A stretch of DNA of 64,000 bases, from assembly GCF_024700885.2 (NCBI RefSeq), contig NZ_CP117016.1. One strand, 5' to 3'. Origin of the DNA: Escherichia coli (GTDB lineage: Bacteria > Pseudomonadota > Gammaproteobacteria > Enterobacterales > Enterobacteriaceae). Below, piece by piece: positions 4,199-13,148 of the stretch. Below the pieces are notes generated by a model that worked only from the letters and a program-made list of their open reading frames with translations, was not told the origin of the DNA and made no database searches. The position numbers were made by a program, and so were the translations under genes. How positions within the stretch are numbered: position 1 is the stretch's first letter; each line of letters begins with the position of its first letter.

Positions 4199-4745
4199 GG
4201 GTAATCCTTTGTAAGACAGAGAGTAAAATAAGTTACACACGTCGTATTTATGGCCGCTCATAACGGCACAGGTTTAATATCACAGGAGTGTCTTTATCTG
4301 ACCGTAATGTTGCAATTGATCTATTTTCAAAATGTCTTTCGGGAAATGATTGTTTAAAGTGTGTTTTCAAATTCTCATTTTAATTCAGTGTGTTATGTCA
4401 ACTAATGTCATGAATGTTAAATTTTTAAAATTAACTTGATTTGATGTATTGAGATAATTGTGATCAACTTCTAATTTGCATTTTTGTGACGTGGCTTTAG
4501 CCATGAGTAAATACATTTCATAAAAGTTAAGTCGAATTTCACTGCAATTCATCTCTGCTTAATGTAAAAATAATGTTGAAAATAACAAATAATTAATGAT
4601 TCATGCGAATTATGACCTTTGTTAGCTCTTTTGATTTTTCGTAAAAAAGAAAAGTACATGAAGGTGCTACCAGTACGAGTAACGTTAATCAAAAGTTTTA
4701 TTACGTCTGGCAATAACGCAGGCCATTTTTCGCGACAGGAGGGAT

Positions 4746-5168
4746 TTAATCAGTATAATCCTCATACAATAGGTCAGGATTTACTGAACCGTTAACGGGG
4801 ATTTGGTGTTGAAATTTAGAAATGGCGGAGTCAATTAATGAAGACAATATCGGAAAAATGACAGTGTCAGAATTAATTTCAATTAATCCTTCTCGTTGTT
4901 GACCAAAAAAGATATTTATCTTGATTTCATTTGTACTACGGCAATCAATATGCAGTAATTTTTGATCGCTGAGATTTTCTGTTTCATAAATGTTTTTGGC
5001 GATAGTCGGATGTATTGATGCCAGACATCTGCTCAGATAAGCCAGATCCTTTAGGGAACACCCCGCTGAGTAGAGGATGTCAGAGAATTTTTGTGTGTCA
5101 ACTGTTGTCTCTGAAGCGTATGTTGCATTGACAGGAAGGGTGTTGAAAGAGATTTGAGATGGGATCAT
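4746..5168 (-). CDS. hypothetical protein (140 aa), AT-rich gene
   Basis: ORF in low-GC DNA, same strand and 80 bp downstream of the 314-aa ORF; no recognisable motif. Confidence 0.4.
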   Translation of the reverse strand: MIPSQISFNTLPVNATYASETTVDTQKFSDILYSAGCSLKDLAYLSRCLASIHPTIAKNIYETENLSDQKLLHIDCRSTNEIKINIFFGQQREGLIEINSDTVIFPILSSLIDSAISKFQHQIPVNGSVNPDLLYEDYTD

Positions 5169-5248
5169 TATTTAAATCTTTCCGTGAGTAATAAAAATTA
5201 ATCCCCGGGCATTGTTTAGCAATATTTGCCACAGGGAATATATAAAAA

Positions 5249-6193
5249 TTAAAGTATTTGATTGGCATCGGTTAACTGATCAATAACCAGTGCCAGATTG
5301 GTAAACATTTTGAAAAAGCGATACTGGCTCGGAATATCTCTTTCAAAGACGAAACATTCAATGTCATTGTTTGAAAAATAAAGGACTAGTGTTGCTGATT
5401 CGTCAGGAAAAATATGGAAATATATCTGGTTACCAGAAGGAGGATAGTCCAGATGAAGGGTATCTTTGCCCGTCACATACCTGTTGTGGTCGTGGATGCT
5501 GCGCTCACACTTCATCAGAGGTGTCATGATACTCATGTATTCATCTGATGTTAATATATTAAAATCACCATCCATTTTAAAGAAACGATAAAGTAACAGT
5601 ACATCCTCTTGCGTAACCGGTTCGTTTGTTTTTAGAGGGAAATAAGTGGGAACCAGAAGATGAGGTTCTAATCTATTTTGTTGAGCGCTATAACTAAATT
5701 TGAACATAAATTCCGGATCGCTCATTAATTGAGCGACATAATTATGCCTGGCTTCAAAAATTTTAACTTTTATCAGGTTAAATAAGTCTGTTTCGTTATC
5801 CTGTATTAAAAGACATTGGCCATAGCAGCCAGGCTTTTTTTCATTATAAGCAGAAACGGTTATTCTGTCAGGAGTGTCAACGTTATATCCAAAAGCCAGA
5901 TAGTGACCTTCCTCATCGAGATTTGTTTCCAGGTTATTTAAATTCATCACATGAAGTGTTTGCAATGCTGATTCAATGAGCTGTTGACTCTCTGAGGTAA
6001 ATGTTTCGCGCTGCGTTGTATAAAGTGTATCGATTCCAACGACTATCCGATGTGGGTCAAGGATGGCGGCAATCATCTTTATTACCTGCACAGTCATGGG
6101 TGATGTCATTGATTCTTTATCTGTTTTTAGAGGATCATTAGATGGCCAACCTGAGAAGCGATTGACAGCAGAACTGATATTATCAGGACTCAT
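5249..6193 (-). CDS. hypothetical protein (314 aa) with internal YRFFKM repeat
   Basis: Long ORF in low-GC DNA; motif YRFFKM occurs twice; no recognisable domain. Confidence 0.5.
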   Translation of the reverse strand: MSPDNISSAVNRFSGWPSNDPLKTDKESMTSPMTVQVIKMIAAILDPHRIVVGIDTLYTTQRETFTSESQQLIESALQTLHVMNLNNLETNLDEEGHYLAFGYNVDTPDRITVSAYNEKKPGCYGQCLLIQDNETDLFNLIKVKIFEARHNYVAQLMSDPEFMFKFSYSAQQNRLEPHLLVPTYFPLKTNEPVTQEDVLLLYRFFKMDGDFNILTSDEYMSIMTPLMKCERSIHDHNRYVTGKDTLHLDYPPSGNQIYFHIFPDESATLVLYFSNNDIECFVFERDIPSQYRFFKMFTNLALVIDQLTDANQIL

Positions 6194-6647
6194 AGCAGCA
6201 ACCTCATTGTAATCAAGCGAGGCGCTGAGCGTACTCGGCTATAGAAAAACTAACTTGCAAAAATCGCTCATTTTTCATTTATCAGGCGAAAGTGGTCTCT
6301 GTTCACTCAGAAACAATCACTCCCGCTAAGTCATACCTGTATCATCGATACATTTAAGTGATTATTACTAATGAAACAATAACATAACGGGCTTACGGCC
6401 GGTGCTCATAAACGCAACAATCAATTAACTTTGATAAAAATATGTTATGTAAAATAGCAACAAATTGGCTAATCTAATCAATTGGTATTATAAAAAGTGG
6501 ATAAGGCGGTTCTGTTAAATAAAACACTGGTTTTTTATCTATACCTTTTCATTGTAATAATTGTGTTGCATAAATATTTCACAATAAATTAACAATAAAA
6601 TTACCAATGATCTATGGTTTATACATAATTAACATATTTGGTTGGTT

Positions 6648-6661
6648 TTGATATAAATCAA
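6648..6661. promoter_or_regulatory. FNR-type binding site (TTGAT-N4-ATCAA) in cydA control region
   Basis: Exact match TTGATATAAATCAA in the long AT-rich leader upstream of cydA. Confidence 0.45.
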
Positions 6662-6998
6662 TTTTTAATTCTTGAAAAAAATCTGCAAAACACGATAAAT
6701 TGTCGTAGATCAAATTGGTGAGATCGTGACAATTTCGCTATAAATTGATCACTGTCGAAAAATGCAAATTTGCTCAATAAAAACCTGTTTATTGTAAGGA
6801 TTTTGCGGCGTAATATAATTACGGGATCAATTTGGTTTATTCATTAACATATTTGTAACTTTTTTATCATTGTCTTTTCCTCTTTTGATGAAATGGCAAC
6901 GATAGAGGCGAGCAAATAATTTTGTATTGGGGCATGCGTGTGACCCTTTCTAACGGGGTTCACTCTCGGAGTCTTCATGCGATGAGCAAGGAGTCATG

Positions 6999-8567
6999 AT
7001 GTTAGATATAGTCGAACTGTCGCGCTTACAGTTTGCCTTGACCGCGATGTACCACTTCCTTTTTGTGCCACTGACGCTCGGTATGGCGTTCCTGCTGGCC
7101 ATTATGGAAACGGTCTACGTCCTTTCCGGCAAACAGATTTATAAAGATATGACCAAGTTCTGGGGCAAGTTGTTTGGTATCAACTTCGCTCTGGGTGTGG
7201 CTACCGGTCTGACCATGGAGTTCCAGTTCGGGACTAACTGGTCTTACTATTCCCACTATGTAGGGGATATCTTCGGTGCGCCGCTGGCAATCGAAGGTCT
7301 AATGGCCTTCTTCCTCGAATCCACCTTTGTAGGTCTGTTCTTCTTCGGTTGGGATCGTCTGGGTAAAGTTCAGCATATGTGTGTCACCTGGCTGGTGGCG
7401 CTCGGTTCAAACCTGTCCGCACTGTGGATTCTGGTTGCGAACGGCTGGATGCAAAACCCAATCGCGTCCGATTTCAACTTTGAAACTATGCGTATGGAGA
7501 TGGTGAGCTTCTCCGAGCTGGTGCTTAACCCGGTTGCTCAGGTGAAATTCGTTCACACTGTAGCGTCTGGTTATGTGACTGGCGCGATGTTCATCCTCGG
7601 TATCAGCGCATGGTATATGCTGAAAGGTCGTGACTTCGCCTTCGCTAAACGCTCCTTTGCTATCGCTGCCAGCTTCGGTATGGCTGCCGTTCTGTCTGTT
7701 ATTGTTCTGGGTGATGAATCTGGTTACGAAATGGGCGACGTGCAGAAAACCAAACTGGCTGCTATTGAAGCCGAGTGGGAAACGCAACCTGCGCCTGCTG
7801 CCTTTACTCTGTTCGGCATTCCTGATCAGGAAGAGGAGACGAACAAATTTGCGATCCAGATCCCTTACGCGCTGGGCATCATTGCAACGCGTTCCGTGGA
7901 TACTCCAGTTATCGGCCTGAAAGAACTGATGGTGCAGCATGAAGAACGCATTCGTAACGGGATGAAGGCGTACTCTCTGCTCGAGCAACTGCGTTCTGGT
8001 TCTACCGACCAGGCGGTTCGTGACCAGTTCAATAGCATGAAGAAAGACCTCGGTTACGGTCTGCTGCTGAAACGCTATACGCCAAACGTGGCTGATGCGA
8101 CTGAAGCGCAGATTCAACAGGCAACCAAAGACTCCATTCCGCGTGTAGCGCCGCTGTACTTCGCGTTCCGTATCATGGTGGCGTGTGGCTTCCTGCTGCT
8201 GGCAATCATCGCGCTCTCTTTCTGGAGTGTCATCCGCAACCGCATTGGCGAGAAAAAATGGCTGCTGCGCGCCGCGCTGTACGGTATTCCGCTGCCGTGG
8301 ATTGCTGTAGAAGCGGGCTGGTTTGTGGCTGAATATGGCCGCCAACCGTGGGCTATCGGTGAAGTGCTGCCGACAGCTGTGGCGAACTCGTCACTGACCG
8401 CAGGTGATCTCATCTTCTCAATGGTGCTGATTTGCGGCCTGTATACCCTGTTCCTGGTGGCAGAATTGTTCTTAATGTTTAAATTTGCACGCCTCGGCCC
8501 AAGCAGCCTGAAAACCGGTCGCTATCACTTTGAGCAGTCTTCCACGACTACTCAGCCGGCACGCTAA
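6999..8567 (+). CDS. cydA: cytochrome bd-I ubiquinol oxidase subunit I
   Basis: 522-aa protein [23 protein letters not shown], recognised. Confidence 0.95.
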
Positions 8568-11389: not shown

Positions 11390-11818
11390 ATGGCCAGAGC
11401 GCGTGGACGAGGTCGTCGCGATCTCAAGTCCGAAATCAACATTGTACCGTTGCTGGACGTACTGCTGGTGCTGTTGCTGATCTTTATGGCGACAGCGCCC
11501 ATTATCACCCAGAGCGTGGAGGTCGATCTGCCAGACGCTACTGAATCACAGGCGGTGAGCAGTAACGATAATCCGCCAGTGATTGTTGAAGTGTCTGGTA
11601 TTGGTCAGTACACCGTGGTGGTTGAGAAAGATCGCCTGGAGCGTTTACCACCAGAGCAGGTGGTGGCGGAAGTGTCCAGCCGTTTCAAGGCCAACCCGAA
11701 AACGGTCTTTCTGATCGGTGGCGCAAAAGATGTGCCTTACGATGAAATAATTAAAGCACTGAACTTGTTACATAGTGCGGGTGTGAAATCGGTTGGTTTA
11801 ATGACGCAGCCTATCTAA
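11390..11818 (+). CDS. tolR: Tol-Pal system protein TolR
   Basis: 142-aa protein, recognised. Confidence 0.95.
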   Translation: MARARGRGRRDLKSEINIVPLLDVLLVLLLIFMATAPIITQSVEVDLPDATESQAVSSNDNPPVIVEVSGIGQYTVVVEKDRLERLPPEQVVAEVSSRFKANPKTVFLIGGAKDVPYDEIIKALNLLHSAGVKSVGLMTQPI

Positions 11819-11882
11819 ACATCTGCGTTTCCCTTGCTTGAAAGAGAGCGGGTAACAGGCGAACAGTTTTTGGAAACCGAGA

Positions 11883-13148
11883 GTGTCAAAGGCAACCGAA
11901 CAAAACGACAAGCTCAAGCGGGCGATAATTATTTCAGCAGTGCTGCATGTCATCTTATTTGCGGCGCTGATCTGGAGTTCGTTCGATGAGAATATAGAAG
12001 CTTCAGCCGGAGGCGGCGGTGGTTCATCCATCGACGCTGTCATGGTTGATTCAGGTGCGGTAGTTGAGCAGTACAAACGCATGCAAAGCCAGGAATCAAG
12101 CGCGAAGCGTTCTGATGAGCAGCGCAAGATGAAGGAACAGCAGGCTGCTGAAGAACTGCGTGAGAAACAAGCGGCTGAACAGGAACGCCTGAAGCAACTT
12201 GAGAAAGAGCGGTTAGCTGCTCAGGAACAGAAAAAGCAGGCTGAAGAAGCCGCAAAACAGGCCGAGTTAAAGCAGAAGCAAGCGGAAGAAGCGGCAGCGA
12301 AAGCGGCGGCAGATGCTAAAGCGAAGGCCGAAGCGGATGCTAAAGCTGCGGAAGAAGCTGCGAAGAAAGCGGCTGCAGACGCGAAGAAAAAAGCAGAAGC
12401 AGAAGCCGCCAAAGCCGCAGCCGAAGCGCAGAAAAAAGCCGAGGCAGCCGCGGCGGCACTGAAGAAGAAAGCGGAAGCGGCAGAAGCAGCTGCAGCTGAA
12501 GCAAGAAAGAAAGCGGCAACTGAAGCTGCTGAAAAAGCCAAGGCAGAAGCTGAGAAGAAAGCGGCTGCTGAAAAGGCTGCAGCTGATAAGAAAGCGGCAG
12601 CAGAGAAAGCTGCAGCCGACAAAAAAGCAGCAGAAAAAGCGGCTGCTGAAAAGGCAGCTGCTGATAAGAAAGCAGCGGCAGAAAAAGCCGCCGCAGACAA
12701 AAAAGCGGCAGCGGCAAAAGCAGCAGCTGAAAAAGCCGCTGCAGCAAAAGCTGCCGCAGAGGCAGATGATATTTTCGGTGAGCTAAGCTCTGGTAAGAAT
12801 GCACCGAAAACGGGGGGAGGGGCGAAAGGGAACAATGCTTCGCCAGCCGGGAGTGGTAATACTAAAAACAATGGCGCATCAGGGGCCGATATCAATAACT
12901 ATGCCGGGCAGATTAAATCTGCTATCGAAAGTAAGTTCTATGACGCATCGTCCTATGCAGGCAAAACCTGTACGCTGCGCATAAAACTGGCACCCGATGG
13001 TATGTTACTGGATATCAAACCTGAAGGTGGCGATCCCGCACTTTGTCAGGCTGCGTTGGCAGCAGCTAAACTTGCGAAGATCCCGAAACCACCAAGCCAG
13101 GCAGTATATGAAGTGTTCAAAAACGCGCCATTGGACTTCAAACCGTAA
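11883..13148 (+). CDS. tolA: Tol-Pal system protein TolA
   Basis: 421-aa protein with Ala/Lys/Glu-rich helical repeat domain. Confidence 0.95.
   Translation: MSKATEQNDKLKRAIIISAVLHVILFAALIWSSFDENIEASAGGGGGSSIDAVMVDSGAVVEQYKRMQSQESSAKRSDEQRKMKEQQAAEELREKQAAEQERLKQLEKERLAAQEQKKQAEEAAKQAELKQKQAEEAAAKAAADAKAKAEADAKAAEEAAKKAAADAKKKAEAEAAKAAAEAQKKAEAAAAALKKKAEAAEAAAAEARKKAATEAAEKAKAEAEKKAAAEKAAADKKAAAEKAAADKKAAEKAAAEKAAADKKAAAEKAAADKKAAAAKAAAEKAAAAKAAAEADDIFGELSSGKNAPKTGGGAKGNNASPAGSGNTKNNGASGADINNYAGQIKSAIESKFYDASSYAGKTCTLRIKLAPDGMLLDIKPEGGDPALCQAALAAAKLAKIPKPPSQAVYEVFKNAPLDFKP

Follow-up and report, generated by a model that had tools for sequence, protein, structure and literature searches.

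A Two-Gene AT-Rich Orphan Module beside cydAB in Escherichia coli

An AT-Rich Gene Pair without Recognizable Relatives outside Escherichia

The subject of this analysis is a module of two genes in a 64,000-nucleotide stretch (the window) of an Escherichia coli chromosome (contig NZ_CP117016.1). The module lies between the glutamate mutase (glm) operon and cydA, in the gene order glmE, IS26, glmL, glmS, the two open reading frames (ORFs) and cydABX-ybgE-ybgC-tolQRA. The ORFs encode proteins of 314 and 140 amino acids, referred to here as the large and small proteins; they share a strand and are separated by 80 bp, at exactly the coordinates given in the initial annotation of this DNA (Table 1). 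The pair is on the same strand as glmS, 547 bp upstream of it, and is transcribed divergently from cydAB across a gap of ∼805 bp between the large gene and cydA.

The AT-rich character first noted for the module DNA is borne out by all of its parts. The GC content is 0.380 for the large ORF and 0.371 for the small ORF, and 0.30–0.33 for the spacer and flanks, with the flank toward cydA at 0.33; the corresponding values for glmS and cydA are 0.487 and 0.526. At third codon positions, GC is 0.35 and 0.34 for the large and small ORFs, respectively, versus 0.61 for cydA. The whole stretch from 4199 to 6620 has a GC content of 0.30–0.38, compared with ∼0.50–0.56 in the flanking DNA. A good Shine-Dalgarno sequence, GAGGT, precedes the ATG of the large gene by 7 nt; that of the small gene is weak. 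Because no terminator was detected in a scan of the 80-bp spacer, the two genes are presumably co-transcribed. Generic promoter and terminator scans of the module region gave matches at chance level, and Rfam gave no match in the module DNA.

Both proteins are acidic, with isoelectric points (pI) of 4.8 (large) and 4.65 (small). The large protein has no transmembrane segment and is predicted to be a soluble α/β protein; the small protein has no hydrophobic stretch long enough for a membrane helix. AlphaFold2 (AF2) models have predicted local distance difference test (pLDDT) scores of 44 for the large protein and 46 for the small protein, the latter with a predicted order of helices, three strands and a helix. 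The two proteins are not significantly related to each other by BLAST, hhalign or a shuffle test.

Neither protein has a recognizable domain, fold or relative outside Escherichia. Searches of Pfam and NCBIfam gave no match at E ≤ 0.001 for either protein, PADLOC gave none, PHROGs gave nothing beyond one match at E = 0.25, with none of these four collections yielding a match better than E = 0.1, and PDB sequence profiles gave E values of at least 0.12 at best. The statement in the initial annotation that no domain could be recognized therefore holds, and the remote-homology and fold searches that it proposed as a check, now run, find nothing outside Escherichia. With the large protein as query, a word-indexed search of 5.8 billion proteins returned 5 clusters; the small protein gave 42. 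Their named members are only E. coli or Shigella; a large-protein cluster at 65% identity is that of E. albertii. Scanning 1.84 billion representatives exhaustively with HMMER profiles recovered only fragments of the same protein, and Foldseek returned self-family matches only, with no fold match.

Among 100,044 species represented by one genome each, four loci carry homology to the module: those of E. albertii, Escherichia sp. MOD1-EC7003, and two metagenome bins labeled Collinsella sp. and Citrobacter sp. The two bins are most likely to contain mis-binned E. coli contigs, and give no evidence of spread, because their contigs and module proteins are 98%–99% identical to E. coli. A tblastn search against phages gave no match. 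Three “plasmid” matches in PLSDB (NZ_CP141089.1, NZ_CP134663.1, and CP088669.1, of 4.9 Mb, 4.9 Mb, and 730 kb, respectively) are chromosomes or chromosome fragments filed as plasmids, and the module is absent from true plasmids and phages. Within the literature library searched, no paper names the locus tags or the WP accessions.

Table 1. Positions of the gene pair and associated features in the window
Feature	Position	Strand	Basis or remark
Large ORF, 314 aa	5249–6193	minus	annotated coding sequence in all sampled genomes
Small ORF, 140 aa	4746–5168	minus	ORF list
Spacer between the two ORFs, 80 bp, GC 0.30	5169–5248	minus	sequence
AT-rich flank toward glmS, 547 bp, GC 0.32	4199–4745		sequence
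First YRFFKM hexapeptide, residues 202–207	5573–5590	minus	E. albertii has FHFLQM here
Second YRFFKM hexapeptide, residues 291–296	5306–5323	minus	E. albertii has YRYFAM here
Module-type intergenic half, 427 bp	6194–6620		unalignable with the K-12 mngB-cydA spacer, K-12 homology from ∼6620; three-way alignment, BLAST
Conserved 75-nt block directly upstream of the large-gene ATG, includes GAGGT	6194–6268	minus	89% identical to E. albertii
Conserved intergenic block	6400–6495		88% identical to E. albertii versus 64%–66% around it

The large protein contains the hexapeptide YRFFKM twice, as had been pointed out. A repeated hexapeptide is rarely produced by chance, arising in only 323 of 200,000 shuffles of the protein, and the DNA of the two copies has three synonymous differences. 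The duplication lies outside any wider internal repeat, none being found by BLAST, hhalign, or a shuffle of the two halves (p about 0.08). Since the motif is not kept in E. albertii, we reject YRFFKM as a functional repeat, although it is indeed present twice.

Selection, Age, and Distribution within Escherichia

Both ORFs are real protein-coding genes under purifying selection. By the pairwise Nei-Gojobori method, the ratio of non-synonymous to synonymous divergence (dN/dS, or ω) is 0.29–0.50 for the large gene and 0.07–0.31 for the small gene. Comparison of the large gene in E. coli and E. albertii gives 142 non-synonymous and 71 synonymous differences, against a neutral expectation of ∼169 and ∼44 (chi-square about 21). 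The gene also retains exactly 314 codons, with no insertion or deletion (indel), at a dS of 0.50. The constraint is unevenly distributed along the large gene, with ω of 0.16 for residues 31–95 and 0.48–0.55 from residue 96 on.

The synonymous divergence also bears on the age of the module. For E. coli and E. albertii, dS is 0.24–0.53 for cydA, cydB, ybgE, tolQ, and tolR, and 0.06 for ybgC. Because the large-gene value falls among those of the neighboring core genes, we infer that the module was in place before the two species split. Its protein would have evolved fast since then, dN being 0.219 for the large gene compared with 0–0.013 for the neighbors, an excess of at least 17-fold. The composition of the module is foreign-like, yet its dS is core-like, and the locus is common to E. 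coli, E. albertii, and a cryptic clade. Despite its composition, the module therefore does not appear to be a recent import, and any transfer would be ancient; of the horizontal acquisition suggested initially, only an old event is consistent with a dS within the core range. A repeat search around the module found no island boundaries or IS remnants, and neither mobility genes nor a tRNA attachment site accompany it.

Of 5426 complete E. coli genomes, 1135 carry the module, which is 1.55 kb long and almost always found at one and the same chromosomal site. Among 40 records spread over these 1135, there are 39 with two hypothetical-protein coding sequences (CDSs) and an uninterrupted match, and the remaining one has an IS4 insertion. 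Carriers include O157:H7 Sakai (ECs_0766/ECs_0767), an EDL933 derivative, and strain 042 of enteroaggregative E. coli (EAEC). The gap between sucD and cydA, which holds the module and the glm genes here, is occupied in K-12 by mngR-mngA-mngB. glmS and glmL are likewise found in 1135 of the 5426 genomes, and the pair and the glutamate mutase island are inherited as one block inside E. coli.

This linkage does not hold outside E. coli, in either direction. The large gene of E. albertii adjoins cydA and there is no glm operon; DNA homology ends at window position 5143, 25 nt into the small gene. The sampled E. albertii large-gene alleles are 98%–99% alike and mostly intact at 314 aa. In the type strain, the large gene is frameshifted and the small-gene remnant corresponds to residues 30–60. 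In the cryptic lineage Escherichia sp. MOD1-EC7003, the glm operon is intact and both genes of the pair are broken: the large gene is spread over three frames and contains ∼120 bp of inserted DNA, residues 1–93 of the small gene are missing, and 41 nt of the spacer (5196–5236) are conserved at 97.6%. Only fragments of the module are found in Shigella dysenteriae, and frameshifted 82-aa variants of the small gene exist. Conservation as a pair thus holds inside E. coli, and the small gene is lost elsewhere.

Two side observations concern these loci. In MOD1-EC7003, similar short insertions break up the large gene and take the place of the front of the small gene (about 7349–7469 and 8091–8218 of its locus). 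Both translate to “...HTSSCMC..CVRSP.SL.YVSS.GF..LP.SCNSNYL.Y...”, and they look like a miniature repeat element that has struck the module twice. At the E. albertii locus, a 258-aa protein with a signal-peptide-like start is encoded at the place of the glm island (11786–12562). It has no precomputed Pfam hit and, by eye, has the look of an outer-membrane β-barrel; with it, the sucD-cydA locus has a third type of allele.

The pair can also be set against the E. coli O157:H7 methylaspartate (glutamate mutase) island that Kronen and Berg described (2015, PMC4682846), to which it is adjacent and with which it shares the count of 1135 genomes. The two differ in GC content (0.37–0.38 for the pair versus 0.49–0.56 for the island) and in identity to O157 (96.6% versus 98.1%), the pair diverging faster. 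The pair lies outside the island as described, which has its own LysR-type regulator, and the two come apart in other Escherichia species. The glm cluster has been reported in Klebsiella, Citrobacter, Salmonella, and others (PMC4682846); our searches found no homologue of either pair protein in the genera so reported. In the present strain, a complete 820-bp IS26 lies in glmL at 1758–2577, with terminal repeats GGCACTGTTGCAAA and an 8-bp target duplication ACTTTACG (1750–1757 and 2578–2585). The split glmL has a 396-aa N-terminal ORF, compared with a 462-aa protein in the closest genome, and the glutamate mutase operon is probably inactivated or polar-disrupted here; the pair is intact in the same strain. 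These observations support the view that the pair is an accessory module and not part of the glm operon. Of the two roles offered in the initial annotation, the independent two-gene accessory system is the one upheld, the pair being separable from glm in E. albertii and MOD1-EC7003.

Upstream DNA and Expression

On the upstream side of cydA, alignment with K-12 is limited to the ∼375 bp closest to the ATG (window 6194–6996 compared with K-12 7613–8458). Within the remaining, module-type half, two blocks stand out by their conservation in E. albertii (Table 1). The block adjoining the large gene, beyond which the next 131 nt are 66% identical to E. albertii, is probably the leader or core promoter of that gene. 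It has no significant RNA structure (z = −0.43) and no consensus σ70 promoter. The second block contains a perfect TATAAT on the minus strand at 6492–6487, with no usable −35 element, and an ArcA-consensus-like box at 6415–6429 with three mismatches. A candidate regulatory element, it could serve the promoter of the large gene, distal control of cydAB, or both. σ54-like strings in the spacer and leader, read by eye, were rejected because the GG is absent or the spacing is wrong.

Upstream of cydA, in the part common with K-12, lies a perfect FNR consensus box, TTGATTTATATCAA, at 6648–6661; at the aligned place, K-12 has TTGATATTTATCAA. An ArcA-consensus-like box is carried at a similar distance by both locus types, in a K-12 version and a module version. 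Of the six sites in the 64-kb window that nearly match the H-NS nucleation motif, two lie in the gap between the large gene and cydA (6345 and 6692). In K-12, repression of cydAB by H-NS is relieved by ArcA, as cited in PMC3798270.

The pair is barely transcribed. In published RNA sequencing (RNA-seq) of enterohemorrhagic E. coli (EHEC), it has 0–5 reads per kilobase per million mapped reads (RPKM) in 11 conditions; values for cydA in the same data are 2–212. This near-silence most plausibly fits H-NS-type silencing of AT-rich DNA, as the initial annotation had proposed; low expression and AT-richness both agree with that proposal, and the part assigned to H-NS itself is one that we infer from them. 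The supplement of an hns/hns2 study in EAEC 042 has no entry for cydA, glmS, methylaspartate, or the guessed tags EC042_078x/079x, the true old tags being not known.

Interpretation of the Gene Pair

We favor, with a confidence somewhat above even, a reading in which the module is an old, Escherichia-restricted orphan bicistron, normally silent and divergent from cydAB, whose large protein is maintained and whose small protein is dispensable. The module would have entered the sucD-cydA locus before the E. coli–E. albertii split and retained its AT-rich composition. It would be nearly silent in laboratory conditions, most likely through H-NS-type silencing, in an intergenic region that would also carry the H-NS/ArcA/FNR-controlled cydAB promoters; its own promoter is expected within the 427 bp at 6194–6620. 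Release from silencing would need some signal, and low oxygen, acting through ArcA/FNR, readily suggests itself as a candidate. The unit kept for its function would be the 314-aa protein, in which residues 31–95 are the most constrained. The 140-aa acidic protein would be an accessory partner rather than an essential antidote, and is considered dispensable because the E. albertii large gene is mostly intact at 314 aa without the small gene.

Several points weigh against this reading. An ω of ∼0.45 is high, and decay of the module is seen in MOD1-EC7003, in Shigella dysenteriae, and in the type strain of E. albertii; it follows that selection is either weak or conditional. There is no consensus promoter upstream of the large gene, and promoter-like matches in the region number 13 against 12.3 expected. 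Silencing is deduced only from composition and one transcriptome study without an anaerobic condition. Both AF2 models are of low confidence, so the description as two α/β modules is tentative.

These same points raise the question of whether the ORFs are functionless or decaying passengers, kept open mainly by their place beside the essential cydAB control region and by rare expression, and under weak or residual constraint. Such an account would accommodate the RPKM of 0–5, a large-gene ω of 0.44–0.50 that is 10–100 times that of the neighbors, the disrupted copies in three lineages together with the frameshifted small-gene alleles, and the lack of homologues and of good AF2 models. We nevertheless consider it unlikely. 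dN/dS is significantly below 1 (142:71 observed versus ∼169:44), ω falls to 0.16 at residues 31–95 and to 0.07–0.31 in the small gene, the 314-codon frame is free of indels across a dS of 0.50, and both CDSs are uninterrupted in 39 of 40 E. coli records, as are most E. albertii alleles of the large gene. Distinctly improbable, in our judgment, is a conflict pair, that is, a toxin with its immunity protein or antitoxin or an anti-phage defense system, made up of a 314-aa effector and a 140-aa acidic inhibitor. A larger gene followed on the same strand by a small acidic one, the AT-rich, fast-evolving, and lineage-restricted character of both, and the strain-to-strain variation of the sucD-cydA locus, which holds mngRAB in K-12 and the glm island in this strain, would all suit it. 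Against it, PADLOC, Pfam, and NCBIfam give no match, the neighbors are metabolic or respiratory with no secretion, delivery, or defense-island genes, and the module is absent from plasmids and phages. Defense and toxin-antitoxin loci are usually expressed constitutively, whereas transcription of the pair is nearly absent. Moreover, across E. albertii as a species an intact large gene persists in the absence of the small one, which is incompatible with an active toxin that requires an antidote. Known type II toxin-antitoxin and toxin-immunity pairs resemble the module in having adjacent same-strand genes, a small acidic member, and a variable locus; the module differs from them in lacking such domains, in its 80-bp gap where they overlap, and in the large gene standing alone in E. 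albertii.

We regard it as very unlikely that one or both proteins are substrates of type III secretion, through the LEE (locus of enterocyte effacement) or the cryptic E. coli type III secretion system 2 (ETT2), with the small acidic protein possibly a chaperone. The idea draws on N termini rich in S, T, N, Q, P, and I, the fraction of these residues at positions 2–26 being 0.52 in the large protein and 0.64 in the small protein, compared with 0.33 ± 0.09 in 49 other ORFs of the window (1 of 49 reaches 0.52 and none reaches 0.64). This composition is, however, a crude score and not a trained predictor. The size and charge of the small protein (140 aa, pI 4.65) are those of a class I chaperone, and carriers include O157:H7, EAEC 042, and E. 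albertii; we take ETT2 to be present in some of the carrier lineages. Many carriers are presumably strains of the extraintestinal pathogenic (ExPEC) type without the LEE. There is no CesT/SycE-type Pfam match and no fold match, the predicted order of secondary structure (in a model of pLDDT 46) is unlike the α-β3-α-β2-α of the chaperones, and the would-be effector is retained where the would-be chaperone has been lost. Compared with CesT/SycE-type effector-chaperone pairs, the module is alike in its adjacent small acidic protein and polar N termini, but has no family or fold match, no type III secretion genes nearby, and a small gene that is lost separately; the gene order, the 80-bp gap, and the chaperone-like size and acidity are not specific or diagnostic. 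Scarcely credible, finally, is the regulatory role for the neighboring operon that the initial annotation had also allowed, in which the pair would control glmS-glmL-glmE-mal downstream. Its position 547 bp upstream of glmS on the same strand and the equal counts of 1135 among 5426 E. coli genomes speak for it, but physical linkage alone would give this co-inheritance within E. coli. Both proteins are acidic and have no DNA-binding or sensor domain (Pfam, NCBIfam, and PDB sequences at E ≤ 0.001), linkage fails both ways outside E. coli, other genera have the glm cluster without these proteins, and the island carries its own LysR-type regulator (PMC4682846).

Considered together, these comparisons leave an old, normally silent orphan bicistron as our preferred explanation. 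Lineage-restricted orphan genes in AT-rich, H-NS-silenced enterobacterial DNA are a known kind. The pair resembles such H-NS targets in its low GC content (14–15 points below cydA), its restriction to a single genus, its near-zero transcription, a dN above that of core neighbors, and its position beside cydAB, on which H-NS acts (PMC3798270). It differs from them in its core-like dS and in a locus fixed in three Escherichia lineages. A more far-reaching version, which we see as a long shot, is that the pair founds a family born in Escherichia or radically diverged there, with an undescribed fold and a conditional function once silencing is lifted. If so, it could be a secreted factor directed at the host or at competitors, or a new two-component conflict system, used, for example, at low oxygen in the gut by way of the ArcA/FNR/H-NS region that it has in common with cydAB, and the conserved N-terminal third of the large protein (ω of 0.16) would be an interaction surface.

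Hypothetical-protein annotations for the genes already exist in thousands of public genomes, and the genes are ordinary lineage-restricted orphans. Their interest is modest and lies in their age and persistence, in the constrained N-terminal third of the large protein, and in the replaced distal control DNA of cydAB. About one-fifth of complete E. coli genomes carry the pair, with function, family, and fold unassigned, and there is no reason to retain the proposed link to glutamate fermentation. Where K-12 has the distal half of its cydAB control region, module-bearing strains have the upstream DNA of the module, and control of cytochrome bd-I (cydAB) may differ somewhat between the two. More generally, the pair indicates that, with weak purifying selection, an AT-rich orphan can persist for as long as its genus has existed and yet be almost untranscribed in the laboratory; the pair would offer a tractable case for silent orphan-gene function if an expressing condition is found.

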